64,000 bases of DNA from the NCBI GenBank assembly GCA_963559365.1, contig CAUWKC010000004.1, forward strand, positions 8,431 through 72,430, written 5' to 3'. Positions 5,718 to 47,845 of this stretch are shown here, in pieces. The DNA is from an uncultured Clostridia bacterium. Lineage in GTDB: Bacteria; Bacillota; Clostridia; TANB77; CAG-508. How positions within the stretch are numbered: position 1 is the first letter of the stretch; the number at the start of each line of letters is the position of its first letter. The position numbers were made by a program, and so were the translations under genes. Below the pieces are notes generated by a model, which was not told where the DNA came from, searched no databases, and worked only from the letters and a program-made list of their open reading frames with translations.

Positions 5718-5778
5718 GAATTTTACAAAGTCACCAAACGACAAAAAATAGCATAAAATACCATAGGAGGTGACTGTT

Positions 5779-6063: not shown

Positions 6064-6095
6064 AAAAAGTCAGTATGCATAATGCGTACTGACTT

Positions 6096-6683
6096 TTATG
6101 AATTTATGTAAGAATCAATAATTTCCCAAACAGCTTCCTGATAAATTTTTCTTTCAGAAGAAAAAGGAAGTGTCTTAATATCACCTAAAGGATTTAATTG
6201 TTTTTGCAGATTAATAACAACATCATCTACTTTTGTTTTTGCAATTTTATCAGCCTTATTAGCTAAAATCAAACAAGGTAATCCAGAAGAAATAATATAA
6301 CGATACATTAACTTGTCATTCTCTGTTGGATTGTGCCTAATATCAATCAAAAACACAACTAAAGAAATTTCTTTGCGATGAAACAAATATTGCTCAATAA
6401 ATTTACCTACTTTTTCTTGTTCTTTTTTGGACATTTTACTATAACCATAACCAGGTAAATCTACAAAATAGAAAGTATCATCCATATTATAAAAATTGAT
6501 TTGACGAGTTTTGCCAGGTTCACTACTAGTTCTTGCTAACTTTTTTCTATTAATCATAGTATTAACAAAACTAGATTTTCCGACATTAGATTTACCAACT
6601 AATACGATTTCAGGTAATCCTTGAGAAGGATATTGTTTGGGGTGCACCGCAGATATTTCAAATTTAGGATTTTTAACTAGCAT
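6096..6683 (-). CDS. engB: ribosome-biogenesis GTPase YsxC/EngB
   Basis: GKSNVGKSSFVN (G1), DLPGYGY (G3) and NKADK (G4). AAGGAGG precedes the ATG giving MLVKNPKF. Confidence 0.85.
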   Translation of the reverse strand: MLVKNPKFEISAVHPKQYPSQGLPEIVLVGKSNVGKSSFVNTMINRKKLARTSSEPGKTRQINFYNMDDTFYFVDLPGYGYSKMSKKEQEKVGKFIEQYLFHRKEISLVVFLIDIRHNPTENDKLMYRYIISSGLPCLILANKADKIAKTKVDDVVINLQKQLNPLGDIKTLPFSSERKIYQEAVWEIIDSYINS

Positions 6684-6720
6684 AATTAGCCTCCTTTTTA
6701 AAGTTGCCAATAGGTTATCC

Positions 6721-8004
6721 CTATTGGCAAGTTATTTTTTCTAATCCACCCATGTAAGGTCTTAAAACTTCTGGAATAATAACACTTCCATCTGGTTGAT
6801 AGTTATTTTCCATAATAGAAATCAACATACGAGGTGGGGCAACTACTGTGTTATTTAATGTATGAGCAAAATAATTTCCGTTTTCACCTTTAATACGTAT
6901 ACCAAGTCTACGAGATTGAGCATCTGTTAAATTAGAACAACTTCCTACTTCGAAATATTTCTTTTGTCTAGGACTCCATGCTTCTACATCACATGATTTT
7001 GCTTTTAAATCAGCTAAATCACCACTACAACATTCTAAAGTTCTAACAGGAATGTTCATACTTCTGAAAAATTCTACTGTGTATGACCACATTTTATCAT
7101 ACCATTCCCAAGATTGTTCTGGTTCACATACAACAATCATTTCTTGTTTTTCAAATTGATGAATTCTATAAACACCACGTTCTTCAATTCCATGTGCGCC
7201 TTTTTCTTTTCTGAAACATGGAGAGTAAGAGGTCATAGTATATGGCATATTTTCTTTTTTTAGAATTTGATCTTTAAATTTACCAATCATAGAGTGTTCA
7301 CTAGTTCCAATTAAGTATAAATCTTCTCCTTCTATTTTATACATCATAGCATCCATTTCTTCGAAACTCATAACGCCAGTTACTACATCAGAACGAATCA
7401 TAAATGGTGGAATACAATAGGTAAATCCCTTGTTAATCATAAAGTCTCTAGCATAAGTTAAAACTGCTGAATGAAGTCTTGCAACATCTCCTAATAAGTA
7501 ATAGAAACCATTTCCACTAACACGTCTAGCACTGTCTAAATCTAATCCTCCTAATGCTTCTAAAATTTCTCCATGATAAGGAATTTCATAATCTGGAACT
7601 ACTGGTTCTCCAAATTTTTGTACTTCCACATTTTCACTGTCATCTTTACCAATAGGAACAGATTCGTGCATAATATTAGGAATTTTCATCATTCTTGTTT
7701 TTATAGCTTCTGCATATTCATTTTCTAATTTTTCGTTTTCTTCCAATTTCTCATTTATTTGACTTACTTGTAATTTTACTTTTTCTGCTTCTTCATTATT
7801 ACCTGATTTCATTAAGTTACCAATTTGACTACTTAAACTTTTTCTTTCTGATCTTAAATTATCACCATTTAATTTGGCTTCTCTATTTTTTATGTCTAAT
7901 TCAATTACTTCGTCTACTAATACCAATTTCTGGTCTTGGAATTTCTTTTTTATATTTTCTTTTACCACTTCAGGATTTTCTCTTAAAAATTTAATATCAA
8001 TCAT
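6721..8004 (-). CDS. serS: serine--tRNA ligase
   Basis: N-terminal coiled-coil arm plus class II core (FRKEKGAHG.., TLNNTVVA.PR). 427 aa. Confidence 0.95.
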   Translation of the reverse strand: MIDIKFLRENPEVVKENIKKKFQDQKLVLVDEVIELDIKNREAKLNGDNLRSERKSLSSQIGNLMKSGNNEEAEKVKLQVSQINEKLEENEKLENEYAEAIKTRMMKIPNIMHESVPIGKDDSENVEVQKFGEPVVPDYEIPYHGEILEALGGLDLDSARRVSGNGFYYLLGDVARLHSAVLTYARDFMINKGFTYCIPPFMIRSDVVTGVMSFEEMDAMMYKIEGEDLYLIGTSEHSMIGKFKDQILKKENMPYTMTSYSPCFRKEKGAHGIEERGVYRIHQFEKQEMIVVCEPEQSWEWYDKMWSYTVEFFRSMNIPVRTLECCSGDLADLKAKSCDVEAWSPRQKKYFEVGSCSNLTDAQSRRLGIRIKGENGNYFAHTLNNTVVAPPRMLISIMENNYQPDGSVIIPEVLRPYMGGLEKITCQ

Positions 8005-33414: not shown

Positions 33415-35982
33415 ATGTATATATTTAATAGAATTACAGTTAATCCACAATTACCAAAAAGAATTGAGAAATTAGCAGAAATTGCTAATAATTTATGGTG
33501 GTCATGGAATACGGAATATTTAAGATTATTTCAAAAAATAGATATAGATTTATGGGAACAATGCAGTAAAAACCCAGTAAAATTTTTAAAACAAGTATCA
33601 CAAGAAAGATTAGAAAAAGCTTCAAAAGATATACTTTTTTTAAAGGAATATGACAAAATTGCAGAAAACTTTGATAGTTATATGAATAGTAAAAACACAT
33701 GGTTTTCAAACAAATATCCAGAAAACAAACATGACTTAATTGCTTATTTTTCAGCAGAATATGGATTAGACCAAACTATACCAATATATTCAGGAGGGCT
33801 TGGAATTTTATCTGGTGATCATCTAAAATCAGCAAGTGATTTAGGAATTCCTTTAGTAGCTGTAGGGCTATTATATAAACACGGATATTTCCGTCAAAAA
33901 ATTAATGGATATGGACAACAAGAAACAGAATATAATGGAATTGATTTATATGATATGCCAATACATCCAGTAAAAGACGAAAAGGGAGAAGACTTAACCA
34001 TTTTTGTCAAATTTCCAAAAAGAAGATTATATTTAAAAGTTTGGCAAATAAATGTAGGAAGAGTAAAATTATATCTACTAGATTCTGATATTGAAAAAAA
34101 TAACCAAGAAGATAGAGATGTAACATTAAAATTATATGGCGGAGACCAAGAAATGAGAATCCGTCAAGAAATAGTATTAGGACAAGCAGGAGTAGAATTA
34201 TTAACAAAATATTTAAAATTAAATCCAACAATATATCATATGAATGAAGGACATTCTGCTTTCTTAAACTTAGAAATTATAAAAAACATTATCAAAGAAA
34301 AACAAGTATCTTTTGAAGTTGCTAAAGATATTGCTAGTTCAAAAACAGTATTTACAACACATACACCAGTACCAGCGGGAAATGATATTTTCCCAATTGC
34401 ACTTGTAGAAAAATATTTTAAGGATTTTTGGCCAAGGTTAGGACTTTCAAGAGAAGAATTCTTAAAATTAGGAATGAAACCAGGAATAGACTTAGATGAA
34501 GGATTCAATATGGGAATTTTAGCTTTAAAAATAGCTGGCAAGAAGAATGGGGTTAGCAAATTACATGGAGCAGTATCGAGAGAATTATTTGGAGATGTGT
34601 GGCCAAACATAGCAGCAAACGAATCTCCAATTGAATATGTAACAAATGGAATCCATACTTGTTCATGGTTAGCACCAAAAATGAAAGAATTATACAATAA
34701 ATACTTAATGCCATATTGGCAAGACAATATGTATCAAGATAAAGTATGGGAAAAAATAAAAAATATTCCGGATGAAAAACTATGGGAAGTACATATAGAA
34801 AGAAAAATTAAATTAATTAAATTAGTAAAAGATAGTACAATGGAACGATTAAGACGTTCTGGTTATAGTTATGATGAAATAACAGAAATTGTTTCAAAAT
34901 TAAATCCAGAAGCACTAACAATAGGATTTGCAAGAAGATTTGCAACATATAAAAGAGCAACTTTAATATTTAAGGATTTAGAAAGAATTACACAAATTTT
35001 AAATAATGTAGATAGACCAGTTCAAATTATATTTGCAGGAAAAGCACATCCAGCAGACAAAGAAGGACAAGACCTAATAAAATATATCCATGAAATATCT
35101 ATGATGCCACAATTCAAAGGAAAGATTTTCATTCTAGAAAATTATAATATTGCTATGTCAAGATATTTAATAAGTGGAGTTGACGTTTGGCTAAATAATC
35201 CAAGAAGACCAATGGAAGCTTCAGGAACAAGTGGTCAAAAGGCTTCTGTTAATGGTGTAATTAACTTTAGTGTTTTAGATGGATGGTGGGCAGAAGGATA
35301 TACACAAGATAATGGATGGACAATTGGAACAAATGCAGAATATGATTCTTATGAAGCACAAGATATGGCAGATAGCCAAAGTATGTATCGTACATTAGAA
35401 GAAAAGATTATACCAACTTATTATCAAAAAGATAAAAATGGTTTATCTAAAAAATGGTTATCTATAATGAAAAATTCTATTATAACAACAGGTGGAAAAT
35501 ATAGTACGGCTAGAATGTTAGTAGATTATACAAATAAACTTTACATACCACTTTGTAATTTAACCAAAAAATATTATCAAGATGTTGATAATGTAGCAGC
35601 TTATAATTCTTGGAAAAAAGATTTATTTATGAATTGGAAAGATATTAAAATTACACAAGTAAATAATTTAGATAATATTACAATGGATGCAGGAAATAAT
35701 ATAGAAGTAGCTTGTGAGGTAGAATTGCCAAACATAAATGTAGAAAATGTAACAGTTGAAGCATATTATGGAAAAATTCTTGAAAATGGAATTGTGGAAA
35801 ATGTCAGCATAATTCCAATGAAATTAGAAGACCAAGATGAAGAAAATAAAAAATATTATTTTACGGCAAAAATAGAGTTAACAACAGGGGGAAATTATGG
35901 TTATACTTTTAGAGTAATGCCAAGACATGAAATGTTGCTAGAACCAGCTAATTTGGATTTAGTGAAATGGATAACAAAATAA
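33415..35982 (+). CDS. glgP: alpha-glucan (maltodextrin/glycogen) phosphorylase, GT35
   Basis: 855 aa; YFSAEYG, SGGLGILSGDHLKSASDLG, FARRFATYKR and EASGTSGQKA (PLP Lys region). Confidence 0.85.
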   Translation: MYIFNRITVNPQLPKRIEKLAEIANNLWWSWNTEYLRLFQKIDIDLWEQCSKNPVKFLKQVSQERLEKASKDILFLKEYDKIAENFDSYMNSKNTWFSNKYPENKHDLIAYFSAEYGLDQTIPIYSGGLGILSGDHLKSASDLGIPLVAVGLLYKHGYFRQKINGYGQQETEYNGIDLYDMPIHPVKDEKGEDLTIFVKFPKRRLYLKVWQINVGRVKLYLLDSDIEKNNQEDRDVTLKLYGGDQEMRIRQEIVLGQAGVELLTKYLKLNPTIYHMNEGHSAFLNLEIIKNIIKEKQVSFEVAKDIASSKTVFTTHTPVPAGNDIFPIALVEKYFKDFWPRLGLSREEFLKLGMKPGIDLDEGFNMGILALKIAGKKNGVSKLHGAVSRELFGDVWPNIAANESPIEYVTNGIHTCSWLAPKMKELYNKYLMPYWQDNMYQDKVWEKIKNIPDEKLWEVHIERKIKLIKLVKDSTMERLRRSGYSYDEITEIVSKLNPEALTIGFARRFATYKRATLIFKDLERITQILNNVDRPVQIIFAGKAHPADKEGQDLIKYIHEISMMPQFKGKIFILENYNIAMSRYLISGVDVWLNNPRRPMEASGTSGQKASVNGVINFSVLDGWWAEGYTQDNGWTIGTNAEYDSYEAQDMADSQSMYRTLEEKIIPTYYQKDKNGLSKKWLSIMKNSIITTGGKYSTARMLVDYTNKLYIPLCNLTKKYYQDVDNVAAYNSWKKDLFMNWKDIKITQVNNLDNITMDAGNNIEVACEVELPNINVENVTVEAYYGKILENGIVENVSIIPMKLEDQDEENKKYYFTAKIELTTGGNYGYTFRVMPRHEMLLEPANLDLVKWITK

Positions 35983-35995
35983 ACACCAATAAAAG

Positions 35996-36027
35996 AAGAA
36001 ACCTTTTACGAGAAAAGGTTTCTTTTT
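35996..36027. terminator. bidirectional terminator
   Basis: AAGAAACCTTTT-acgag-AAAAGGTTTCTT followed by TTT. Confidence 0.75.
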
Positions 36028-36033
36028 ACCTAA

Positions 36034-36107
<74 letters not shown>

Positions 36108-36116
36108 ATTTTTGAA

Positions 36117-36471
36117 TGGTGGAGATGAGGAGAATCGAACTCCTGTCCATACTACTTTCCAAATAGACTTCTACAAGTTTAGTTTATCTTTTTTATTCAT
36201 TTTATTTTCACCGATAAACAGGTTAAAATAAAATATAGCTTTTATAATACCCTTTACTTTCAAAGCAAAAGTAAATTCGTTTCCCACATATTATGGCACT
36301 TTTCTAAAATTTGTGGGGAATTTTAGAAAAGCGTAGCCGCATCTTAGGCAGCTAATGCTAATTCTTGTTTATCAGCGTTTATATTTAAATTCTCGTTTTT
36401 TTAAGTGGCCAACGAGAATCCACTACTTGCTATCTATTTTTCTGGTAATATGTCGAAACCATTACATCCCC
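36117..36471 (-). ncRNA. ssrA: tmRNA (SsrA)
   Basis: 5' GGGGATGTAATGGTTTCGAC and 3' GGAGTTCGATTCTCCTCATCTCCACCA. Tag reading frame is GCT GAT AAA CAA GAA TTA GCA TTA GCT GCC TAA (36344-36376), giving ADKQELALAA. Confidence 0.9.
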
Positions 36472-36571
36472 ATATACTTATTTATTATACTATATTTTTT
36501 TTTATTAATCAACATTTATGACTTTTTAAATTTTTATTGCTTTATATCATAAAAAAAGATATAATATAATT

Positions 36572-37444
36572 ATGAAAAAATTAATTGTACCTAATAAATA
36601 TAATGGAAAAAAATTGAATAAAATTATTTTTGATGAATTTCCGAACTTAAATACTAATCTTTTTTACAAAACATTAAGAAAAAAAGATATAAAAGTAAAT
36701 GGAAAAAGAATTTCTGAAAATATTACAGTTTATGAAAAAGATGAAATCTTAATATATATTGCTGATTCTATTTTATCTTCATCTTTTAATTTAGACATTT
36801 TTTTTGAAGATGAAAATATTTTGATATTGAATAAACCTTATCAGCTTGAAGTAACTGGTAAAAATAGTTTGACTTTTTTTGTTCATCAGAAATATGCGAA
36901 TACTAATTATAAACCAATGCCATGTCATCGTATTGATCGTAATACAACTGGTTTGGTTTTATTTGCCAAAAATGAAAAGACTTTAAACATTTTATTGGAC
37001 AAATTTAAAAAACATGAAATTGAAAAACATTATTTAGCTTTAGTTTATGGTATTCCTAATACTAGTTATAAAAGATGTGAAGCCTATTTATTTAAAGATA
37101 CTAAAAAATCTTGTGTTTATATTTCTGACACTTTAAAAAAAGGTTATCAAAAAATTATTACTACTTATAATGTTTTAAAAACTTATGATAATAACACTTC
37201 TCTTTTAGATGTTGAAATTGAAACTGGTAAAACTCATCAAATTCGCGCTCATCTTGCTCATTTGGGATATCCTATTATTGGTGATGGAAAATATGGAATT
37301 AATACAGTTAATAAAAAGTTTGGTAAAAAGTATCAAATGCTTTGTAGCTATGTTTTAAAATTCAATTTCAAAACAGATAGTGGTATCTTAAATTATTTAA
37401 ATGGAAAAAGCTTTACTTTAGATAGTAAAACTTTTATCCATTAA
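36572..37444 (+). CDS. RluA-family pseudouridine synthase with S4-like N-terminus
   Basis: HRIDRNTTGLVLFAK catalytic Asp motif and GKTHQIRAHLAHLGYPIIGD. Confidence 0.85.
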   Translation: MKKLIVPNKYNGKKLNKIIFDEFPNLNTNLFYKTLRKKDIKVNGKRISENITVYEKDEILIYIADSILSSSFNLDIFFEDENILILNKPYQLEVTGKNSLTFFVHQKYANTNYKPMPCHRIDRNTTGLVLFAKNEKTLNILLDKFKKHEIEKHYLALVYGIPNTSYKRCEAYLFKDTKKSCVYISDTLKKGYQKIITTYNVLKTYDNNTSLLDVEIETGKTHQIRAHLAHLGYPIIGDGKYGINTVNKKFGKKYQMLCSYVLKFNFKTDSGILNYLNGKSFTLDSKTFIH

Positions 37445-37453
37445 AATATAAGA

Positions 37454-38584
37454 TTATTGAAATTTTGTTATATCGTCAACTCTTCCTGCAAAATATGGCT
37501 TTGATTTTCCTTTTTCTCTTAAAAATATTGCAAAAGTATCATCAACATAAAAATATCTTGGCTCATCTTTTTCAGTTTCTGGTTTAAGTGAAACAATGTC
37601 TATTTTGGTATCTATGGCAGCTTCACTTTTAATTTCTCCACCTTTTTCATCTAAAGAAAATTTTATAGTTTGGATTGCTTTTTGTATTTCTGCAGTATCA
37701 TATTTTGGATCTGCTGTTTTAAATTCGTTGTTTGCTAATTCTGTATATTCTTTTTCTTGATTAAAAGTTAAATTTGGAGCTTTAAATTCATCTAAATATT
37801 CAAAAGATCTACTTCCTGTATATTTATCAGATTCATTATTCATATTTTCATATATTTCATTGAAACATTTTCCTTTAGGATTCTTACAAAATATTACCTC
37901 ATCATTAGTTGTGGTATTTATTAATAGTGCAAAGTCATTTTTTGAATTATAATATAGAACTTGAATTTGATTTCCTACTGATGCTTCGGTTTCATCATCT
38001 ATTCCAAAATATTCTACATCTTTGTATTTATTTCCGAATTTGTCATTATCTAATTTATCAAATTCTTTTAAAAATTCAAATTTTCTATATAACATTGTAT
38101 AAAAAAAGTATCTTCTAGAATCACTATTATTAGGATTATCTAATCCGTTTTCAGACCAATCAATTTTATTTAATATATCACTTGTTTGGTTAAATTTTTT
38201 CTTTATTTCACTTTCTATTGTTTCTTTTAATTTTAGATTTTTTATTCCATAAATTTTGAAATAGTAGTCTTCTGAAAGCATGGATTCATTAAAATCTTCT
38301 TTATTTAAATTTTTTACCATATCTAATTGTGGATTAAATACTATATCTTGTTTTACGACTTCGTTTTTCATGTCATTCCATATTAATTGAAATGTTCCAC
38401 ACCAACTGCTATCTTCTGTTATTGTATCATTCATTGTAGGTACAACTGTCATTTCTTTAACTGATTGTAATTTTGTTGTTGCAGTATTGCTAAATAAATT
38501 TGCTTTATTTAGCAGAATAATTCCAATTGTAAATATTGTTAATAAAATTATAAATACTATTAATATTTTCACTTTTTTGTCCAT
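37454..38584 (-). CDS. membrane-anchored serpin-like protein (divergent)
   Basis: N-terminal TM. C-terminus FYVDDTFAIFLREKGKSKPYFAGRVDDI matches the serpin signature F.VD.PF...I.E.....ILF.GRV. Hinge-like DEKGGEIKSEAAIDT lies upstream. Confidence 0.5.
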   Translation of the reverse strand: MDKKVKILIVFIILLTIFTIGIILLNKANLFSNTATTKLQSVKEMTVVPTMNDTITEDSSWCGTFQLIWNDMKNEVVKQDIVFNPQLDMVKNLNKEDFNESMLSEDYYFKIYGIKNLKLKETIESEIKKKFNQTSDILNKIDWSENGLDNPNNSDSRRYFFYTMLYRKFEFLKEFDKLDNDKFGNKYKDVEYFGIDDETEASVGNQIQVLYYNSKNDFALLINTTTNDEVIFCKNPKGKCFNEIYENMNNESDKYTGSRSFEYLDEFKAPNLTFNQEKEYTELANNEFKTADPKYDTAEIQKAIQTIKFSLDEKGGEIKSEAAIDTKIDIVSLKPETEKDEPRYFYVDDTFAIFLREKGKSKPYFAGRVDDITKFQ

Positions 38585-38640
38585 ATATAAATTCTCCTAA
38601 TTTCTATTTGATTATACTTTAACATATATTTTAAAGTTTT

Positions 38641-39106
38641 TCAACTTAAAATTGCACCTAAAATTAATATACCTAAATTATTATTATAAATTTCATCGAA
38701 TTGAGAAATAGGTAAAGGATTTTTTCCAATTCCTGCTTCGATAGTATAACCAGGGCGTTGATAAGTTTGGATAAACCAATCTTTATAACCAGCAAAACTA
38801 GAATTGTAAGGAGTATCAACTAATGAATAACCACTTGAGTTATCAAATTGTTGACCAATTTCAAGAGCATTGGAAGGATTAAAGTTTTGGAATTTCCAAT
38901 ATATTTCTTTGCCTTGTGTATGATAAGCAAGTACAAGTTTAAAATCATGTGATAAAGTGAAATTATAAATGGCTAGTGCTTCAGGCTCTGTTAGTGGACC
39001 GATATCCAACAAAATCTCGTGGAGCTGGACGATTAAATCCTTGTGAATATTTGATTTCTTTGGCATTTTCCCATCCGGCAGGAAATTGTAAGTTTAAGTC
39101 CACACC
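38641..39106 (-). pseudogene. 3' part of M14 gamma-D-glutamyl-(L)-meso-diaminopimelate peptidase gene (YqgT/ENP1-like), split by the island and frameshifted near 39001
   Basis: The minus strand reads GVDLNLQFPAGWENAKEIKYSQGFNRPAPRDFVGY in one frame. It then reads GPLTEPEALAIYNFTLSHDFKLVLAYHTQGKEIYWKF...GYKDWFIQ...PGYTIE in the next frame. Confidence 0.8.
39093..39106. repeat. attL core (TTTAAGTCCACACC)
   Basis: 13/14 identical to 49561-49574. Sits exactly where homology to the peptidase stops. Confidence 0.8.
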
Positions 39107-39242
39107 TGTGGTATTAAAAATATACCAACCACAAAATAAAATGAATAAAATGCAGTAATCATCTATATTACAGAGTATTTCAAATTAGTTGAAGTATTCT
39201 GTATTTTTTATTGGATTTTTACTGCTAGAATTGGAGTGGTAT

Positions 39243-39725
39243 ATGAAAGAAAAAGAAGAGAATGTTGGGTATTATTCAATAATTCCAGCAACAGTTTTAT
39301 ACAATAAAGAACTAAAAGCAAATGAAAAATTACTATATGCAATTATAACATCACTAGCTTGTAAAGAGGGATATTGTTTTGCAACTAATAAATATTTAGC
39401 AGAGAAATTAGGAGTAAATCCTAAAACAATTTCAAGCTGGATTTCTGATTTAAAGGATAAAAATTTTATAGTTGTTGAACTAATTAGAAATGAAAATAAT
39501 CAAATAATTCAAAGAAAAATTTATATAAATGATGCACTATATCCATTAAATAATGGATGCCAGTATCAATCAAAAAATGGACAGGCTATCTATCAAAAAG
39601 TGGAAGATAATAATATAAGAGATAATATTAAAAATAATAATAATTGTCGTAGAAAATTTATATCAAATTATGAAAATCAAAGAGAATATTCTAAAGAATT
39701 TTTGGAAAGTTTGTATGCGAATTAG
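39243..39725 (+). CDS. helix-turn-helix protein (DnaD/replication-initiator-like N-terminal HTH; possible island regulator or Rep)
   Basis: GYYSIIPATVLYNKELKANEKLLYAIITSLA.KEGYCFATNKYLAEKLGVNPKTISSWISDLKDKNFI. ATG 39243 follows GGAGTGG; the track start TTG 39189 is unlikely. Confidence 0.55.
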   Translation: MKEKEENVGYYSIIPATVLYNKELKANEKLLYAIITSLACKEGYCFATNKYLAEKLGVNPKTISSWISDLKDKNFIVVELIRNENNQIIQRKIYINDALYPLNNGCQYQSKNGQAIYQKVEDNNIRDNIKNNNNCRRKFISNYENQREYSKEFLESLYAN

Positions 39726-39826
39726 GATAAAGCATATTTTTGATTATTTATAATCTTAATAATATTTTTTCTAATAAGAAAACAAAATAAAGATTAAAAT
39801 AGCTAAAAAATAAATGCAAAGCAAGT

Positions 39827-39873
39827 AGTTATTAGAAAAAATAGAATAAGTTATTAGAAAAATCATAATAACT
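39827..39873 (+). promoter_or_regulatory. operator-like repeats (2 direct AGTTATTAGAAAAA, 1 inverted TAATAACT)
   Basis: Direct copies at 39827-39840 and 39849-39862 (22-nt phase). The inverted copy at 39866-39873 abuts the -35 box. Confidence 0.45.
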
Positions 39874-39874
39874 A

Positions 39875-39903
39875 TTGACAAGCATGAAAAAATATAGTAT
39901 AGT
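39875..39903 (+). promoter_or_regulatory. sigma-A promoter of the ATPase gene
   Basis: TTGACA at 39875-39880, 17 nt, TATAGT at 39898-39903. Confidence 0.55.
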
Positions 39904-39927
39904 AATTAAAAATGAAAGGAGAAGAAT

Positions 39928-41247
39928 ATGTTTACAAGAATTTTTATTGATAATTTTCTAGGAATATCAGCTCCAGTAAAATTTGATTTTATTTCTCAAA
40001 GTAGAAATAAGGATAAGTTAAATTCAGTAATCAAAATAGAAGATGGAATATATGTAAATAAACTTATTGGAATAATTGGTGGAAATGCAAGCGGAAAAAC
40101 TAGTATTCTTACTGCAATAAATATGATTGGTCAAATATTAACATCTCCTATTTTACAGTTTGATTTAAATGATAAAATGGATAGTATACGTGAATTATTA
40201 GAAAAAGACAATAATATTGAAGAGAGAAAATTACTTAGAGATATGATAGATAGTATAAATTCAAGTACTGATATTGCAGTACAAAATTTACGACGAAAAG
40301 ATGAAGATACAAAAATAGAAGTTGAAATGTATATAACATCAAATGAAGAAGAGTTGACAGGATATTACACATATAAAGTAAAACTAAATGGAAAAAGTAA
40401 AAAAATAAAAAATGAATTTTTAGGATTTAGAAAAAAATATAAAGATAAGATTGAACCGATTATTCAAATAGAAGATGCAAGAGAGGGACAAGTATATTAT
40501 ATAAATAGATTTTTTAGAAACATAACAGATATTGATAGGAAAAGTAAAACTGAATTAGAGAGAAAATACAAATATTGCAAAGTTTTTGTTGAACACTATA
40601 TAAAGAATTCTGCAACAATTGATACTAGCGAAGATTGTAATTATAAAGAATTAAAATATATTGATTGGTATAAAAAATCACCTGAATCTTTAAGAACTTT
40701 AGTAAGAGTTGTTGATCCAAAAATAAAAGATGTAAAAATAGAAAATGACAGTAAGTATGAGGAATTAGTTTTTGTTTTAAAAGATGGAAGTAATATTACA
40801 AGGAGCATGCTATCTACAGGTACAGAAAGATTTTTAAATTTAATACGATATGTTAATGAAATAATAGACAAAAATGGTGTATTAGCAATTGATGAAATTG
40901 AACAAAATTTGCATAAAGATTTAGTAGAATTAATAATAAAACTATTTAGTGAAATGACACATAAAAATGCTCAAATTATTTTTACCACATTAAGCCCAGA
41001 AATTTTTGATATTGTAGATGAAAATAATAAAAAGATTTTTAAACAAGATACTATTTTTATCATTAATTGTGATAGTGATGATATTCAAATTGATAAATTA
41101 ATTGATTTACAAATTGATGGTGCAAGAGTGAATGGAGATGCTTCGGTAGCAAATCTTTATAAACGCAAAAAAATCTCATGTCATCCAGATAAAGAGCAAA
41201 TAGATTTATTTTTAAATAATTTCAAAAACAATACAATTGACTTTTAA
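39928..41247 (+). CDS. ABC-type/AAA_21-like ATPase (defence-associated family)
   Basis: Walker A GGNASGKTS, signature-like LSTGTERFLNL, Walker B/D-loop VLAIDEIEQNLH. Long helical insert between the lobes. Confidence 0.7.
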   Translation: MFTRIFIDNFLGISAPVKFDFISQSRNKDKLNSVIKIEDGIYVNKLIGIIGGNASGKTSILTAINMIGQILTSPILQFDLNDKMDSIRELLEKDNNIEERKLLRDMIDSINSSTDIAVQNLRRKDEDTKIEVEMYITSNEEELTGYYTYKVKLNGKSKKIKNEFLGFRKKYKDKIEPIIQIEDAREGQVYYINRFFRNITDIDRKSKTELERKYKYCKVFVEHYIKNSATIDTSEDCNYKELKYIDWYKKSPESLRTLVRVVDPKIKDVKIENDSKYEELVFVLKDGSNITRSMLSTGTERFLNLIRYVNEIIDKNGVLAIDEIEQNLHKDLVELIIKLFSEMTHKNAQIIFTTLSPEIFDIVDENNKKIFKQDTIFIINCDSDDIQIDKLIDLQIDGARVNGDASVANLYKRKKISCHPDKEQIDLFLNNFKNNTIDF

Positions 41248-41394
41248 ATAGTTAGTCGTTAAAGAAACAAAAGAAAAAGAGCCATACGAATATAGCCCAT
41301 AATAAGTATAAATTCCGCCAAGAATTCAATACATACTTATTATATAACAAATGATAATTTTTGTAAAGTAGCGAACTTTTGTATTGGTTCTTGG

Positions 41395-41480
41395 AAGGAG
41401 GACCATATGTTTTTAAAAATAAAATTTCAGAAACAGGAATAAATGGTCTAGAACAAATATGTTTTAGACCATTTTAAAAT
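41395..41480 (+). promoter_or_regulatory. leader: 11-codon uORF with strong SD plus 9-bp hairpin upstream of the MBL gene
   Basis: GGAAGGAGG then ATG 41408 (MFLKIKFQKQE, stop 41441-41443). AATGGTCTA (41443-41451) pairs with TAGACCATT (41466-41474). Confidence 0.35.
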
Positions 41481-41506
41481 TTGAATGATGAAAGGATTGA
41501 AGTAAA

Positions 41507-42391
41507 ATGAAAATTTATGTTTTAAGTTCGCAACAATGCGAGGATAGTAGTAAAAATAATGGGGATTGTTTTGTAATAGATAGTAGTAAGGAAATAGTAA
41601 TATATGATTGTGGTTGTGAGGAGTATGCTGATTGGGTAATGGATTATATGAAAGAGCATAATTATTCAAAAGCAAAAGTTGTATTATCACATAATGATGG
41701 TGATCATTTTAAAGGAATTCCAGTATTGGTGAATAACGAGAAAACATCTGAAATAACAACAGTGTTATTGTTAAAATATGTTGATGACATTTTAGATATT
41801 ATAGATGATGGAAGAAAGAATAGAGAATCTTTGAAAAGACAAATAAAAGATACATATGATAATATAGAACAACTATCAGGGCATAATTTGCAGGACGCAT
41901 TTGAACATGTAGAAATTGCAGAAGGAATTAAAATTTCTGGCCCTGGTAAAGATTATATTTTAAATGCTGCAGCAAAGGGATTAGATACTACAGAAGGAGA
42001 TACTATAGATAGTTCAACAATTACTAACGCTACAAGTATTCATTTAGAAATTAGTGCTGGAAATAAAAAAGTATTATTAACCGGAGATTCATCTTTTGAA
42101 TCAGTAATGAAAGAGAATTTAGAAGAGTTCAAAGTAATACAATTGCCACATCATGGAAATGCAGACATAGGAGAAAAGATATTTGAAGAAACAAAAGACG
42201 ATTTAGAAAAACAATATATAATTTCTGATAATACTGGAAATTCAAATGGAGGATCAGATAAATTAGATACAAAAGGGTATAGGGTAATGAGTACAAAAGA
42301 AAAAGGAATGCTAACTTTGGACGAAAATCAAATTTCACAAAATAGAAAAACTATTGGAAATTTAGGAATTTATGAGATATTTGATTTGTAA
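41507..42391 (+). CDS. cytoplasmic MBL-fold hydrolase of the ComEC/Rec2-type subfamily (putative nuclease)
   Basis: VLSHNDGDHFKG (H.D.DH metal motif), VLLTGDSS and QLPHHGN, in the order found in ComEC-type MBL domains. No signal peptide or TM. Confidence 0.6.
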   Translation: MKIYVLSSQQCEDSSKNNGDCFVIDSSKEIVIYDCGCEEYADWVMDYMKEHNYSKAKVVLSHNDGDHFKGIPVLVNNEKTSEITTVLLLKYVDDILDIIDDGRKNRESLKRQIKDTYDNIEQLSGHNLQDAFEHVEIAEGIKISGPGKDYILNAAAKGLDTTEGDTIDSSTITNATSIHLEISAGNKKVLLTGDSSFESVMKENLEEFKVIQLPHHGNADIGEKIFEETKDDLEKQYIISDNTGNSNGGSDKLDTKGYRVMSTKEKGMLTLDENQISQNRKTIGNLGIYEIFDL

Positions 42392-42827
42392 GAAAGATGT
42401 ATCAAATCAAGAAATTAATGCTAGAATGAAGTATATATATGATTTATTTCATATATATACTTTCAAAGACAGCAAAAATTCTGATGAAAACATAACTGTA
42501 TTAGTGAGTATTCCTACAAATGAATTAGATGCTTTAATACTAGTTGGTCATGATCCTATAACCAATAATTATATTATAAATAATATAGATTATATTCCAG
42601 AAAATAATATTATAGTTATTTCTTGTAACACAGGAAAAATAAGAAATTTAAAAGACATCAGAAATAAAAAAATATTTTTACCTAAAAAAACAGGAGAAAT
42701 AGATTATTATGATGGAGCTGAGATAGGCTTTGATTTTGACATTACTGATGAAGAAAATATACTGTATAGAAGTAGAAAGATGGATTTTTATACAATGATA
42801 ACAACTGCATTAGAAAGGATAGAATAA
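42372..42827 (+). CDS. hypothetical 151-aa protein with strand-His / strand-Cys pattern
   Basis: Overlaps the MBL gene by 20 nt. Contains ALILVGHD and NIIVISCNTGK; no known family recognised. Confidence 0.5.
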   Translation: MRYLICKKDVSNQEINARMKYIYDLFHIYTFKDSKNSDENITVLVSIPTNELDALILVGHDPITNNYIINNIDYIPENNIIVISCNTGKIRNLKDIRNKKIFLPKKTGEIDYYDGAEIGFDFDITDEENILYRSRKMDFYTMITTALERIE

Positions 42828-43301
42828 ATGGAAAAAATAATTGAGAAGATAGAGATTTATCACTTTATAAATTACCTTTTACCAGGTACTATATTTGTAG
42901 CAATATTTAATAAAATTTGCGGAAATGAATTTATAGACAGTAATGTTGTAATTGCAGTTATTGAATATTATTTTATAGGGTTGATATTAAGTAGAATTGG
43001 TTCAGTAATATTGCAACCAATATTTAAAAAGGCAAAACTAATAAAATATGCTGATTACAATAAATATATTAAAGCTAGTGAAAGTGATAATAAATTAGAG
43101 ATATTACAAAGAGAAGCTAATCAATATAGAACATATATAGCTACATTTATCATATTGGCAATTATTCAAAGCTATACTTGTATTGTAAATAAAAATTTTT
43201 CAATAATTTTAATACTTTTTGTTGGACTAGTTACATTATTCACAGTAGCATATAAAAAACAAATAAAGTTTATTGTAGATAGAGTTGAAAAAATATATTA
43301 G
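42828..43301 (+). CDS. hypothetical 4-TM membrane protein
   Basis: The ATG immediately follows the upstream TAA (42825-42830). Four hydrophobic segments. Confidence 0.55.
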   Translation: MEKIIEKIEIYHFINYLLPGTIFVAIFNKICGNEFIDSNVVIAVIEYYFIGLILSRIGSVILQPIFKKAKLIKYADYNKYIKASESDNKLEILQREANQYRTYIATFIILAIIQSYTCIVNKNFSIILILFVGLVTLFTVAYKKQIKFIVDRVEKIY

Positions 43302-43371
43302 TTTGTTGAAAAAAATAAAAAAGTATGATAGTATAACTTTGGCGTAATAGAAAAGAAAGGATGATTAAAAT

Positions 43372-44223
43372 TTGAACAACAATATTTTAAAAGCAATTAT
43401 TAATTTGGTGCAAACACCTTCATTTGAATTAAAAGAATATTATAGTAATCGTAATAGAGCAAATAGTATGGGAGATGCACTTGAAGAATATATAAAAGAT
43501 ATTTTTGCAGGTACATATGCAATAGCAAATGAACAAGAACGATTAGAAAAAATAAGTGAAGTATTTAGCTATTTAGGTAACAATTCTAATCCACCAGATG
43601 CAATGCTAAAGAAAGGTGATGCAATAGAAGTTAAAAAGATAGAAAATAATAATGCTTCATTAGCTTTGAATTCATCATATCCAAAACATAAATTGTTTGC
43701 AGATAGTCCAATGATAAGTTTACATTGTAGAGATGCAGAGGAATGGGATGAGAAGGATATAATTTATGCGGTTGGTGTAGTAGATAACAATAAATTGATG
43801 AATTTAAGTCTTGTTTATGGATTAGATTATTGTGCGAGTGAAGAAACATATACTAAAATAAAAACAAAAATTAAAGATGGAGTTGAAGCAATACCAGGAG
43901 TAGAGTTTTCAGAAACTAGAGAACTAGGTAGAGTTAATAAAGTAGATCCATTAGGAATTACATATTTAAGAGTTCGTGGAATGTGGGGAATAGAAAATCC
44001 ATGGACAGTGTTTAAATATATATATGAAAAGGATTTAAGTAAAGAGTTTAATTTTTTTGCAATAATAAATGAAGAAAAATATGCAGATTTTAGTAAAGAA
44101 GATAGAAAAGAATTTGAGGATTTTGTTAATAAAAGTGATTTAAATATGACAAAAGTAAAAATAAAAAATCCAGATAATCCAGCTATATTAAATGTAGCAT
44201 ATTTAATAACGTACAGCAAATAA
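43372..44223 (+). CDS. type II restriction endonuclease, NgoPII-like (predicted GGCC)
   Basis: [10 protein letters not shown]...[18 protein letters not shown]...[28 protein letters not shown] resembles my recollection of R.NgoPII. Adjacent to a HaeIII-like methylase. Confidence 0.6.
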
Positions 44224-44233
44224 GGAGGAATTT

Positions 44234-45211
44234 ATGAAAGTTATTAGTCTTTTTTCAGGGGCTGGTGGATTAGATTTAGGTTTTGAAAAAGCTGGTTTTG
44301 AAATAGAATGGGCAAATGAATTTGATAAATCAATATGGGAAACTTATGAGAAAAACCATAGCAATTATTTAGATAAAAGAGATATAAGAAAAATACCATT
44401 AAATGAGATTCCTGAATGTGATGGAATAATTGGAGGACCACCATGTCAAAGTTGGAGTGAAGCTGGAGCATGCAAAGGTATTAATGATGATAGAGGAAAA
44501 TTATTTTATGAATTTATAAAAATTTTAAATGACAAAAAACCAAAATTTTTTGTTGCAGAAAATGTATCAGGAATGCTTGCAGAAAAACATAAGGATGCAG
44601 TACAAAATTTTATAAAGATGTTTAAAGAAACAGGTTATGATGTTAATTTATATTTGGTAAATGCTTCTGATTATGGAGTGCCACAAGACAGAAAAAGGGT
44701 ATTTTACATAGGATTTAGAGAAGATTTAAATATAAAATTTGAATTTCCAAAACCATTATGTAAGAAAGTAAATTTAAAAGAGGCTATTGGAGATTTACAA
44801 GATACAGCTATTCCTGCATTAGAAAAAAATAAAACAAATGGAGCTTATTGTAAATTTCCCAATAATGAGTATATGACAGGGGGATTTTCTACTATATATA
44901 TGTCAAGAAATCGTGTTAGAAGTTGGGATGAACAATCATTTACAATACAAGCTGGAGGAAGACATGCTCCTATACATCCTCAAGCACCCAAAATGACATT
45001 TGTAGAAAAAAATAAGAGAGAATTTGTAAAAGGAAAAGAAGATTTATATAGAAGATTAACAGTTAGAGAATGTGCAAGAATTCAAACATTTCCAGATAAC
45101 TTTCAATTCTATTATACAGATGTAGCTGATGGATATAAGATGGTAGGCAATGCAGTTCCTGTTAAATTAGCTAATGTAGTTGCTAATGCAATAAAAAATA
45201 GTTTAGATTAA
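44234..45211 (+). CDS. DNA (cytosine-5)-methyltransferase, M.HaeIII-like (predicted GGCC)
   Basis: Motif [50 protein letters not shown]. The TRD ([11 protein letters not shown]...[31 protein letters not shown]) is collinear with M.HaeIII as I remember it. Confidence 0.85.
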
Positions 45212-45683
45212 TTTCAAAAAATTCGTGAACTGTGAATTAAATTTCATAGTGTTTTTATAAAAGACATTCTTCCGGCGGGCTAAAAAATGGTTTAGTAAAA
45301 ATTATCCGAACAGCAAAAATACTGTCAAAACATCAACCTGTTAGATTTTGAAAATTAAAATTTTAGATGATCAGAAGTGATTAAATAATTTATTAATAAT
45401 ATTATTACAAGAAGAAGTAAGGAATTTAATATTTTTATTAATTTTTTTACTTCTTTAATTTTAAATAAATTTATTGTATAAATTAATCAGTAATTATTGA
45501 AGAAATTTACAAAATATGGTATAAAATAAACAGTTATCTCATTTTAAAAATTTATTTCTTAATTGTTTGTATTCTAATCTTTTTATGGTTCTATTATTTC
45601 TATTGATATTAGAGTTGAAAAATTTCCAGTATTATAATATTATAATGTAAAATAATTATGAAGAATTGTTGCCAGGGGGAAAC

Positions 45684-46463
45684 ATGAATAATAATAAAGA
45701 GGATATAAAAGAGAAAAACTTAAAACAAATAGGAATAATAGTAAGTTTAATAATATTATTAGCTTTAATTGGTTATGCAATATTTCCAAACAGAGAAGAA
45801 TTATCAAACAATATTTCAACCGAAAATACACAAACAAATATAGTAAATAATATTCATACTAATGTTAGTATAAATGATATTCCAGAATATTCTGGACAAA
45901 TAGTTATTGACATTAATAATAATGTACCATATTTTAAAGATACAGAAATAACTACTGAAAATTTTGAATATTATTCACAACTTGATGAAATTGATAGAGC
46001 AGGTGCAGCTTTTGCAAATATATGTAGATATACAATGCCACCAGAAGGAACTAAAAGAGGAAGTTTATCATATAAGCCTACTGGTTGGGTTCAATATTTA
46101 TATGGAGAAAATAACAGAAAACATTTATATGAGAGATGCCATCTAATTGCATGGCAATTAGGAAATGAAAACAATAATAGACAAAATCTACTAACAGGCA
46201 CTGCACAGCTAAATGATGCTATGGTAGAATATGAAAATATAGTTGCAAATTGGATTAAACAAAAAAATAAGCAAAATAAAGATTATCATGTTTTATATAG
46301 AGTAACACCTATTTATGAAGATGAAAATAAGTTGGCAACTGGTGTAGAAATAGAAGCAAAATCTGTTGAAGAAGATGGAGTGTCTTTTAATAAATTTATA
46401 TATAATGTACAAGACAATTTTGAAATTGATTATAGAACAGGAGAAGCTAAATTATTAGAATAG
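45684..46463 (+). CDS. membrane-anchored DNA/RNA non-specific endonuclease (EndA/Endonuclease_NS_2-like)
   Basis: N-terminal anchor IGIIVSLIILLALIGYAIF. Also YYSQLDEIDRAGAA, YERCHLIAWQLGNENNNRQNLLTGT and YRVTPIY.. .LATGV.IEA.S. Confidence 0.7.
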   Translation: MNNNKEDIKEKNLKQIGIIVSLIILLALIGYAIFPNREELSNNISTENTQTNIVNNIHTNVSINDIPEYSGQIVIDINNNVPYFKDTEITTENFEYYSQLDEIDRAGAAFANICRYTMPPEGTKRGSLSYKPTGWVQYLYGENNRKHLYERCHLIAWQLGNENNNRQNLLTGTAQLNDAMVEYENIVANWIKQKNKQNKDYHVLYRVTPIYEDENKLATGVEIEAKSVEEDGVSFNKFIYNVQDNFEIDYRTGEAKLLE

Positions 46464-46478
46464 ATAAGGAGGAATAAT

Positions 46479-46955
46479 TTGAATTTAGGCTTAGATACAA
46501 TAATAGAAAAATTGGAACAAAATGATTTTATAAAAAATTTTATGCAAGAATTAAGTGAGACATTAGAAAAAATTAATAGTAGAAATGAATTAAAAGGTGA
46601 AAAAATGGATGATATTAAATTAACTCCTGAAGAAGATATGGAACTTTATAGAAAAAAATGGTCTTTTTTGGAAGGTTATTTTAGCAAGGAATTATCAGAC
46701 TTAAGTAAAGGTGATACATTTATTGTTACAGATAAGTATGAAAATGATTACGAATATCATAGATACAAAGTAACTCAATACAAAAATAATAAAGAATGTA
46801 AATATATTGCTTTTGAAAAAGATTTGCCAGAAAATATAAAATTAGGAGATGTCGTTAGAAAAGTTGATGGAAAATATATTTATGATGAACAGGCTACAAA
46901 ATATGTTACAGATTCTATAAATAAAATTAAAGAAGATATAATAAACAAACGCTAA
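46479..46955 (+). CDS. hypothetical acidic 158-aa protein (possible nuclease partner/inhibitor)
   Basis: TTG start 6 nt after AAGGAGG, 15 nt after the nuclease stop. No motif recognised. Confidence 0.45.
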   Translation: MNLGLDTIIEKLEQNDFIKNFMQELSETLEKINSRNELKGEKMDDIKLTPEEDMELYRKKWSFLEGYFSKELSDLSKGDTFIVTDKYENDYEYHRYKVTQYKNNKECKYIAFEKDLPENIKLGDVVRKVDGKYIYDEQATKYVTDSINKIKEDIINKR

Positions 46956-47208
46956 ACTATTAGTAAAAGCAAATTAAATAAATTTATACATAATGTAATA
47001 TACCAAAAAATGAACAAAATACCGAAGTGGGAATGATATATTCCTCTGTGTTTTTTCTGTGTTTTTTAAATACTTGTACAGGACTAGAAAACTTGGTTTT
47101 CTAGGTGTTTATGAGATTCACTCTGTATCTCTTTCCTGCCTTTTAGCATAAAAATAAAATTTGTTTTAAATGTCCGACATTTCCAAAATAAAAATTTTTA
47201 AATAGGTC

Positions 47209-47237
47209 TTGACAAAATATGTAAATGTATATAAAAT
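47209..47237 (+). promoter_or_regulatory. sigma-A-like promoter inside the 890-bp non-coding stretch of the island
   Basis: TTGACA at 47209-47214, 17 nt, TAAAAT at 47232-47237. Confidence 0.4.
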
Positions 47238-47378
47238 ATGAAAAGAAAGTGTGATGACATAGGCATTACACGGATTTTCTAATTAAGAAAATGTGTTAGC
47301 AGAAAGTTAAGTAAAAATATAGCAAAATTTTAGTATTGTAAAGATATAATAACAAATAACAAAATATGAATAAAAATA

Positions 47379-47418
47379 ACACCTAATAGTGTGAGAACAT
47401 TATTTGGTGTCTTTTTTT
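47379..47418 (+). terminator. rho-independent terminator (ends a putative ~180-nt non-coding transcript)
   Basis: 13-bp stem ACACCTAATAGTG/CATTATTTGGTGT (one mismatch, one GU), loop TGAGAA, then CTTTTTTT. Confidence 0.55.
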
Positions 47419-47845
47419 ATGAAAAAAATTATTTTAATACTTTTTTTGCTATATGAAACCGACTTCTATATAGAAGAAGTTAAAAAAGTACATTGACAAA
47501 TACACTTGTTTTAAGTGTCATAACAAGCCATTTTCTTTAATATTCTGTATTAGATAATTTTATTAAAAACAGTAAGGAGATGATGCAAATATGTGTGAGA
47601 AAATCAAAAATCCAAAAAATAAGTCAGAATTTAATACATATTGCATATTTACAGAAGAAAAAAAGGATGTGAAAGAAACAATCGGATTAATTTTTAAAGA
47701 TTATTTAGAAAATATAAAAATAAAAATTAAGTAGTTATTACATATTATTGCAAAATAATTTTGAGCACGTTACAATTTAAACATAGATGATTACAGATAG
47801 GAGGTCAGATGCTAGATTTAAAAAGCCAGAATTTTAAAGTACGGA

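Follow-up and report, generated by a model that had tools for sequence, protein, structure and literature searches.

The AbiL system of Lactococcus is composed of the ATPase AbiLi and AbiLii, a TOPRIM/OLD-type nuclease. In published work, AbiL is defined as an ATP-binding cassette (ABC) ATPase together with a TOPRIM nuclease (PMC13064643). Here we examine an ATPase gene whose product is related to AbiLi, located in a 64,000-nucleotide stretch of DNA (hereafter the window) from an uncultured Clostridia bacterium (contig CAUWKC010000004.1 of assembly GCA_963559365.1, positions 8,431 to 72,430 of the forward strand). The gene precedes a cassette that begins with a gene for a metallo-β-lactamase (MBL) fold protein, and an earlier interpretation made without database searches (the sequence-only reading) proposed that the ATPase and the MBL protein might form a Septu-like pair, or might equally be independent units. 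The locus is better described as representing a new clade of partner-less AbiLi/PtuA-like ATPases that head a conserved, RNA-regulated docking platform for swappable defense cassettes. We lean toward the view that the ATPase gene invariably comes first in a portable transcription unit that gates a plug-in defense cassette through a regulated leader.

A Clade of AbiLi-Related ATPases without a Nuclease Partner

Among models of known defense proteins, AbiLi (PDLC02335) provides the best match to the window ATPase (E value 2e-37, 126.9 bits), followed in order by generic AriA/AAA_21, mad3, HEC-01A, the retron I-A ATPase, PtuA, and Old. AbiLi is likewise the top defense model for every member of the ATPase clade (2e-37 to 1e-39), and AbiLi and the window ATPase are both Rad50/SMC-type ABC ATPases of approximately 440 amino acids. 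However, clade members that are 31 to 100% identical to the window protein score 127 to 134 bits, whereas AbiLi proteins encoded beside AbiLii (L019:5758-7083 and L037) score 231 to 251 bits. Because the scores are about half those of AbiLii-neighbored AbiLi, the data point to a sister clade of AbiLi rather than to clear membership. Furthermore, no AbiLii, RloB, or TOPRIM gene adjoins the window ATPase, which is followed instead by a structured leader and a variable cassette. Among homologous loci, AbiLii occurs only within a separate, complete AbiL pair upstream in L019-L023. In these loci, all from one species, the pair (5758-7681; AbiLi at 251 bits plus AbiLii/RloB) lies directly upstream of the partner-less ATPase, and the two ATPases are only 21% identical.

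Foldseek searches with the predicted structure return PtuA chains of Septu/retron I-A as the top matches (E value 4e-13, TM score 0.42-0.46), followed by OLD and Rad50, and the best sequence matches in the PDB are the PtuA proteins of retron Ec78/Eco7. Despite this likeness, the ATPase is only 12 to 15% identical to PtuA, PADLOC PtuA models match it partially (1e-8 to 1e-9), and the NCBIfam equivalogs for PtuA (NF041760) and MAD3 yield 32.9 and 37 bits against cutoffs of 500 and 420, respectively. In addition, no HNH PtuB, reverse transcriptase, or msDNA gene is present at the window locus. The protein shares an AAA_21/AAA_15-type ATPase core with PARIS, Gabija, and OLD systems (Pfam AAA_21, 6.4e-16; AAA_15, 9.6e-10). 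Judged from the profile matches, the models for these three systems give scores at the level of the generic domain only: the AriA model PDLC02980 (3.9e-17) is a 304-position profile that aligns at the same coordinates as Pfam AAA_21, and the Old model (2.5e-8) covers only amino acids 304 to 370. Unlike PARIS, the ATPase has no AriB or DUF4435 partner beside it, and unlike Gabija and OLD, it is an ATPase-only protein of 439 amino acids with no fused or paired Toprim.

The sequence-only reading had remarked on the lack of a canonical nuclease partner, and this observation holds. Scans of the flanking genes with Pfam, PADLOC, and NCBIfam revealed no HNH, Toprim, DUF4435, or RloB, and an HNH domain was found (Pfam, PADLOC) neither in the genes flanking the window ATPase nor in any homologous locus. 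An assignment to Septu (PtuA), PARIS (AriA), or the Gabija and OLD families (GajA/OLD) is contradicted both by the missing nuclease partner and by scores that stay below curated thresholds.

The ABC motifs recognized earlier are present. Walker A (GGNASGKTS) spans amino acids 51 to 59, the signature-like LSTGTERFLNL spans 295 to 305, and Walker B (VLAIDEIEQNLH) spans 318 to 329. The residues K57 (Walker A), Q119 (Q-loop), S296 and G298 (signature), and D322 and E323 (Walker B) show no variation across 49 homologs. Approximately 235 amino acids separate Walker A from the signature, which agrees with the insert of roughly 230 residues described before. Its description as helical does not stand, as an AlphaFold model (pLDDT 85.4, pTM 0.84) depicts a mixed α/β insert, with four strands at amino acids 128 to 184 plus helices, that is not purely helical or coiled-coil. 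The H-loop position (amino acids 349 to 357, window positions ~40972-40998) reads QIIFTTLSP; its histidine is replaced by leucine or asparagine in most members and is retained in few (P0107, P0109).

A profile search of 1.84 billion cluster representatives recovered only 40 clusters of relatives at E ≤ 1e-30, which corresponds to a family of approximately 40 clusters at 50% identity. Because all full-length relatives are 405 to 440 amino acids long and align end to end, no nuclease is fused in this family. Genome matches come exclusively from metagenome-assembled genomes of uncultured gut Clostridia. Searches of PLSDB plasmids and INPHARED phages with tblastn gave no match to the ATPase or the MBL protein, and an IMG/VR protein scan returned distant relatives only (21 to 38% identity). 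Most likely, the ATPase is a nucleotide-dependent sensor of the PtuA/AriA/AbiLi type.

Interchangeable Defense Cassettes Follow the ATPase Gene

We compared the neighborhoods of 16 ATPase lineages, which are 31 to 100% identical to the window protein and all derive from uncultured gut Clostridia. A same-strand defense cassette is located 140 to 300 nucleotides downstream of the ATPase gene in every lineage, such that no solo ATPase was observed, and none of the 16 has an adjacent nuclease partner. The cassette of the window, which is PDC-M48-like and encodes the MBL protein, a protein of ~150 amino acids, and a transmembrane (TM) protein, is found in 10 lineages (ATPase identity to the window 100, 94, 81, 75, 69-70, 62, 47, 45, and 44%), although its MBL gene is frameshifted in the lineage at 47%. 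CBASS (an antiphage signaling system based on cyclic oligonucleotides) variants are found in six lineages, a TIR cassette in one, and PDC-M36A-like cassettes in two. The corresponding gene arrangements, with ATPase identity to the window, are DUF6602 and SMODS-AGS_C (63 and 44%); SAVED, CD-NTase, and E2 (56%); SUa-2TM, CD-NTase, E2, and trypsin (47%); CD-NTase and a Cap15-type 2TM protein (42%); S_4TM, CD-NTase, and E2 (36%); DUF6414, PDC-M50A, and ThsB_TIR (47%); and PDC-M36A-like (66 and 31%).

Exchange is also evident between close relatives. An identical ATPase (P0111) is followed by either a CBASS or a TIR cassette at one and the same chromosomal site. Likewise, loci L031 and L033 share ~93% nucleotide identity over the ATPase gene, the whole leader, and the flanking backbone, but L031 carries the MBL cassette and L033 the DUF6602-SMODS cassette. 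Conversely, relatives of the MBL cassette (50 to 52% identity) are preceded by a helix-turn-helix (HTH) type gene of 244 to 249 amino acids in place of the ATPase, with a different spacer. In two such loci (L064, 4043-5001; L068, 3993-5001), the head gene is HTH_3-like, its promoter contains tandem AATGTAAA repeats, and the spacer of ~225 to 260 nucleotides includes a hairpin that reads as a minus-strand terminator.

These arrangements bear directly on the proposal of a dedicated sensor-nuclease complex between the ATPase and the MBL enzyme, i.e., a Septu-like two-component system with the MBL protein in place of HNH. The two genes are indeed same-strand neighbors in the window and in 10 lineages, the ATPase fold is PtuA-like, and the MBL protein carries a ComEC-like HNDGDH motif in addition to its Lactamase_B match. 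However, the same or nearly identical ATPases head CBASS or TIR cassettes, the MBL cassette also resides behind an HTH gene without the ATPase, the ATPase shows no cassette-specific covariation, and its PtuA equivalog score is far below the cutoff. Moreover, PADLOC pairs the MBL protein (PDC-M48B, 5.2e-19) with the TM protein (PDC-M48A, 1.1e-46) rather than with the ATPase, which matches neither model. A literature search found no paper that mentions PDC-M48. It had been specified beforehand that regular association of the ATPase clade with a different partner would speak against a dedicated pair. Because the clade regularly has other partners (CBASS, TIR, and PDC-M36A-like cassettes), exclusive pairing with the MBL protein fails, the dedicated pair is largely refuted by this criterion, and we assign very little probability to it. 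From these comparisons, the ATPase appears to be generic rather than MBL-specific.

A comparison with locus L034 reveals how the parts have been shuffled. This locus and the window have in common a serine-recombinase element, the HTH_36 gene, and an NgoPII restriction-modification (R-M) system. In window coordinates, their nucleotide identity is 77% over 38669-39721 and 71% over 39915-40119. The body of the ATPase gene shows no nucleotide match (36% amino acid identity), the leader is 90% identical over 41232-41400, the cassettes are unrelated, and identity resumes from 43306 at 95%. By this mosaic pattern, the ATPase allele and the cassette are exchanged independently around a retained leader.

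More broadly, promoter, ATPase, and leader form a portable unit, which is found before interchangeable cassettes on four or more backbones. These include a serine-recombinase element inserted in a Peptidase_M14 gene, a tyrosine-integrase integrative and conjugative or mobilizable element (ICE/IME), a conjugative element, and a chromosomal island adjoining an AbiL pair.

A Conserved Leader Separates the ATPase from the Cassette

The sequence-only reading placed the MBL gene ~260 nucleotides downstream of the ATPase and saw a hairpin and an upstream open reading frame (ORF) in between. The distance is correct (Table 1), and the hairpin and ORF are real, conserved, and relevant. Throughout the family, a spacer of ~250 nucleotides follows the ATPase stop codon and preserves sequence blocks where the ATPases are only 36 to 75% identical and the cassettes are unrelated. 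By this comparison, the spacer is the most conserved part of the locus family. RNAalifold returned 0 pairs from a MAFFT alignment of the whole spacer, in which the arms are misaligned, and leader structures were derived by per-element folding and covariance modeling. Plus-strand leaders fold with z-scores of -3 to -9 and include a hairpin (D) and a conserved AACAUUUGU segment. An Rfam search of positions 35000-48000 at E ≤ 1 identified tmRNA and tRNA only and no family in the spacer.

A promoter scan of window positions 41248-41506 revealed no good plus-strand promoter. The sole consensus-like site (41481-41508) overlaps the MBL start codon and was rejected. There is also no plus-strand terminator between the ATPase stop codon and the leader in the window. 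Because the spacer lacks a good internal plus-strand promoter, the evidence points to cotranscription of the ATPase gene and the cassette as one operon.

It is also conceivable that the ATPase and the cassette are unrelated neighbors. The ATPase would then be an autonomous single-gene defense or abortive-infection protein of the partner-less AbiLi-like type, the leader would be the regulatory region of the cassette slot, and the two would persist together as a recombination hotspot's left homology arm. Promoter-terminator cassettes called PeSL offer a documented model for such a hotspot (PMC4122927). The CBASS, TIR, and PDC-M48 cassettes, which are known or candidate systems, look complete on their own, breakpoints fall in the leader, and ATPase alleles have been swapped independently of cassettes. 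Furthermore, the alleles within one element are very divergent (36% identity), as would be expected of an independently evolving immunity gene. However, in all 16 lineages the ATPase is accompanied by a same-strand downstream cassette, and the window lacks both a terminator before the leader and a good promoter within it. The leader also follows the ATPase family over at least four backbones, and it differs where an HTH gene heads the MBL cassette. We therefore regard an unrelated-neighbor arrangement as the less probable explanation, though one that deserves some weight. Strict independence of the ATPase and the cassette, as once entertained for this locus, is unlikely given that a same-strand cassette always follows through a conserved leader.

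A Predicted Antisense RNA, Leader Peptide, and Attenuator

The leader is predicted to contain a convergent promoter and a short, terminated antisense RNA. Minus-strand TTTACA and TATAAT boxes with 17-nucleotide spacing (at most one mismatch in the -10 box) are present in 18 of 20 leaders. Hairpin B, located at the terminator position (41279-41298), is more stable when read from the minus strand in 18 of 20 leaders (-8.2 versus -3.3 kcal/mol), and the same is true of hairpin C in 15 of 20. Across leaders, the predicted antisense RNA is 61 to 78 nucleotides long and forms two hairpins, with fold z-scores of -1.7 to -6.1, and most of its apical loops carry a YUNR-type sequence (CUGG or UUGG). A covariance model of this RNA (model R1) finds exactly one minus-strand match per ATPase locus (E values 1e-7 to 1e-13) and no other significant match in 535 kb. 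In the underlying alignment, 78% of cells are paired, versus 32 to 52% when the pairing partner is slid. Ten pairs exhibit double changes, G:U pairs are numerous, and none of 500 shuffles reaches a higher covariation score.

Between the antisense promoter and the cassette lies a hairpin (F) that is more stable on the plus strand in 19 of 20 leaders and that would sequester the Shine-Dalgarno sequence of a mini-ORF. A mini-ORF is present in 16 of the 20 aligned leaders, with 8 to 11 codons in 14 of them, and 12 of the 13 distinct peptides of this length end with Glu-stop. Hairpin H, a predicted terminator or attenuator, is more stable on the plus strand in 14 of 19 leaders and is followed by a U-rich run and then by the ribosome-binding site of the cassette. 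Fourteen leaders possess a mini-ORF as well as a terminator hairpin, and in these stem H starts between 12 nucleotides before and 1 nucleotide after the first base of the stop codon.

In the window, the apical loop of plus-strand hairpin C has a 7-nucleotide complementarity to the anti-Shine-Dalgarno arm of hairpin F. Over the leaders, this pairing is no stronger for cognate than for noncognate combinations (-7.19 versus -7.09 kcal/mol, p = 0.42), and it is only slightly stronger than with shuffled loops (-7.0 versus -5.4 kcal/mol).

Two JGI metagenome contigs (L042, 7309-7520, and L043; 66% ATPase identity) keep the antisense-RNA module, and in these the ribosome-binding site starts a PDC-M36A-like gene.

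A Phage-Shared Motif at the ATPase Stop Codon

A conserved sequence that we call motif A overlaps the end of the ATPase gene at its stop codon. It is a candidate H-type pseudoknot, or a hairpin with a conserved loop. Its closing stem covaries among loci (UA/GC, CG-AU-GU-AU-UA, CG-GC-UA-UA, and others), its GACU:AGUC pairing has one compensatory change (GCCU:AGGC in L032), and the motif was assigned to the plus strand because of its G:U pairs. A role in stimulating frameshifting or readthrough was rejected, as the stop codon lies anywhere from 8 nucleotides upstream to 20 nucleotides inside the motif.

The pattern GACTTT-N9-AGTCRTTAAAGAA, which was derived from motif A, was also found in 19 IMG/VR viral contigs (L080-L098; six sequence groups, GC content 35 to 49%), with one intergenic copy each. 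There, a covarying, GC-rich hairpin presents the motif as its invariant loop, and a U-run and the start of one of various genes come next. At least one group is T4-like, with a homolog of T4-type dsbA immediately downstream, and the cultured relatives of this group have the gene order rnh-dsbA-gp59-gp32. Rfam detected no family at the motif in six phage loci. We also rejected a repeated phage promoter (T7/T3-like core, PeSL) as the identity of motif A, since each phage contig has a single copy and the flanking stems covary like RNA.

The ATPase Promoter and Its Upstream Repeats

As proposed earlier, the ATPase gene has its own promoter (TTGACA-17-TATAGT) with operator-like repeats. The promoter scan ranks it among the best consensus matches of the region, and nearly all homologous loci retain it with 17-nucleotide spacing. 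Upstream, AGTTATTAG occurs twice (39827-39835 and 39849-39857), followed by the inverted arm ATAATAACT (39865-39873). A palindrome abuts the -35 box in at least 15 homologous loci, and its arms differ between ATPase clades: TTATTAG/CTAATAA, TTATGCC/GGCATAA, ACTGAATACG/CGTATTCAGT, and TGCAATACG/CGTATTGCA. With arms of 8 to 10 bp and an A-rich spacer of 7 to 8 bp, the geometry would fit an operator or a recombinase core site.

Another possibility is that the cassette is licensed by the ATPase in the role of a regulator or sensor. Upon sensing infection, the ATPase would permit read-through by acting either at the palindromic operator of its own gene or on the leader RNA, by analogy with CapH/CapP, CapW, and DdvS/DdvA upstream of CBASS. 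We know of no AAA_21 ATPase that works as a transcription or attenuation factor, which counts against this idea. In its favor, the palindrome varies with the ATPase clade, related MBL-cassette loci have an HTH regulator in the position of the ATPase, and a single invariant gene stands before many abortive-infection cassettes that are self-sufficient. Protein regulators encoded upstream of CBASS have been described (10.1101/2022.04.27.489752, PMC11506125). However, no DNA- or RNA-binding domain could be recognized in the ATPase by its AlphaFold model, Foldseek, or profile searches, and its alleles are exchanged independently of the leader. On balance, a licensing role of this kind is improbable.

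Genomic Setting of the Locus

The coordinates of all features are given in Table 1. The whole defense island of the window is integrative, because it is an insertion that splits a Peptidase_M14 gene into two halves and ends with a large serine recombinase. The insertion is ~10.5 kb long (roughly 39067-49581), and the element together with its insertion gene is found again in many metagenomes (L001-L008). The R-M system directly after the cassette shares 95% identity with loci bearing another ATPase allele and a CBASS cassette. A gene pair farther downstream, conserved within the element family, encodes an Endonuclea_NS_2 protein and a 158-amino acid protein that may represent a toxin-immunity or secreted-nuclease pair. 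Approximately 2.6 kb upstream of the island are the tmRNA and tRNA-Gly genes, with a gene for a pseudouridine synthase and a serpin-like gene in between. The window is low in GC (24 to 32%).

Table 1. Features of the window, in window coordinates
Feature	Positions	Strand	Remarks
tmRNA gene and tRNA-Gly(UCC)	36034-36471	-	tag peptide ADKQELALAA
Peptidase_M14 gene, one half	38641-39066	-	split by the insertion
HTH_36 protein gene	39189-39725		flanks the ATPase gene upstream
Operator-like repeats	39827-39873	+	directly 5' of the -35 box
ATPase promoter	39875-39903	+	sigma-70-type; 11/12 consensus matches
ATPase ORF	39928-41247	+	439 amino acids; AbiLi-related, PtuA-like ABC ATPase without fused nuclease
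Motif A	41239-41268	+	GACU..AGUC, GUUAAAGAA; overlaps the ATPase stop codon; conserved in different reading frames
Small antisense RNA (predicted)	41272-41334	-	~63 nucleotides; 5' hairpin ~41301-41334, terminator 41279-41298, U-run
Antisense RNA promoter	41339-41367	-	TTTACA-17-TATAAT; promoter scan
Hairpin F	41385-41405	+	sequesters the mini-ORF Shine-Dalgarno GGAGG (predicted)
Mini-ORF	41407-41442	+	MFLKIKFQKQE*; predicted leader peptide
Hairpin H (predicted terminator/attenuator)	41441-41475	+	starts 1 nucleotide into the mini-ORF stop codon; just 5' of the MBL ribosome-binding site
MBL gene	41507-42391	+	starts 259 nucleotides after the ATPase stop codon; Pfam Lactamase_B
151-amino acid protein gene	42372-42827	+	middle gene of the MBL cassette
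157-amino acid TM protein gene	42828-43301	+	last gene of the MBL cassette
NgoPII-type restriction endonuclease and C5 cytosine methyltransferase	43372-45211		endonuclease match 1e-113
Endonuclea_NS_2 gene, then 158-amino acid protein	45666-46955		DNA/RNA nonspecific endonuclease; weak DUF3006 match of the 158-amino acid protein
Large serine recombinase	47846-49474		end of the insertion
Peptidase_M14 gene, other half	49582-50031	-	split by the insertion

A Model for Control of the Cassette

We propose that transcription would start at the ATPase promoter and continue into the leader and the cassette. Hairpin F would hide the ribosome-binding site and start codon of the mini-ORF, and terminator H, whose 5' arm lies at the mini-ORF stop codon, would end most transcripts, such that a toxic cassette is kept at a low level. 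If the mini-ORF is translated, the terminating ribosome would cover the 5' arm of the terminator and thereby permit read-through into the cassette. The convergent antisense RNA of ~63 nucleotides, which is predicted to be fully complementary to the 5' half of the leader, would constitute a second negative layer that might operate through duplex formation, processing, or transcriptional interference. The output of the ATPase could be autonomous or could feed into this expression switch.

The arrangement is reminiscent of the antisense-RNA and leader attenuation control of replication genes in plasmid R1 (copB-CopA-tap-repA) and in pT181 and pIP501. The order of elements is alike, with an upstream gene, a convergent short stem-loop antisense RNA, a leader ORF, control at a terminator or ribosome-binding site, and the regulated gene, and the antisense hairpins have YUNR-type loops in common. 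In contrast to the plasmids, the genes controlled here would be defense cassettes rather than a replication initiator, and the upstream gene encodes an ABC ATPase. We consider the resemblance to be functional only and claim no sequence homology.

A second comparison is with platforms for gene exchange. PeSL cassettes mediate modular shuffling in T4-type phages (PMC4122927, PMC2839356). As in PeSL and integron platforms, variable genes are bordered by conserved regulatory sequence, which is also where recombination breakpoints lie. The present unit differs in that there is one copy per locus, not many, and in that a protein gene and an antisense RNA belong to it; neither an integrase nor an attC-like site was identified.

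Several points weigh against a portable, leader-gated transcription unit. Cotranscription, the antisense RNA, and attenuation are all deduced from sequence, and the covariation statistics are moderate, since they come from related sequences in an alignment that had been fitted to the model. The L042/L043 lineage has neither mini-ORF nor terminator, and its conserved ribosome-binding site serves the cassette gene directly, while the P0111 loci carry a shortened mini-ORF/terminator arrangement. Because of these exceptions, the attenuator is not obligatory. In addition, nothing ties the ATPase protein physically to the leader. Because the H-loop histidine is mostly replaced, ATP turnover may be slow or atypical. 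Finally, the constant adjacency of ATPase and cassette could merely reflect swapping by homologous recombination at a hotspot.

An extension of the model, which we consider speculative and rather unlikely, is that the ATPase acts as an infection sensor that relieves the leader block and so induces whichever abortive-infection cassette is docked (MBL/TM, CBASS, or TIR), with motif A, as an RNA signal of phage type, coupling this switch to infection.

Implications for Defense Regulation

The locus family bears on the question of how expression is restrained and released in CBASS, TIR, and membrane-effector systems, all of which kill or arrest the cell. The only restraints on such systems of which we are aware are protein regulators (CapW, CapH/CapP, and sigma/anti-sigma pairs). 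A literature search found no description of an ATPase-plus-RNA-leader platform, nor of an ATPase or antisense RNA fronting CBASS. The loci described herein suggest an RNA-based layer of control, consisting of an antisense RNA and a leader-ORF attenuator, possibly with a pseudoknot. This layer would be tied to an ABC ATPase and reused before no fewer than four unrelated types of cassette, on mobile elements of several kinds in gut Clostridia. The existence of a compact AbiLi/PtuA-like ATPase clade that lost its nuclease partner also raises the question of what role a sensor can have without an effector. Moreover, the conserved ATPase and leader are well suited as genomic bait with which to discover new defense cassettes in uncultured Firmicutes.

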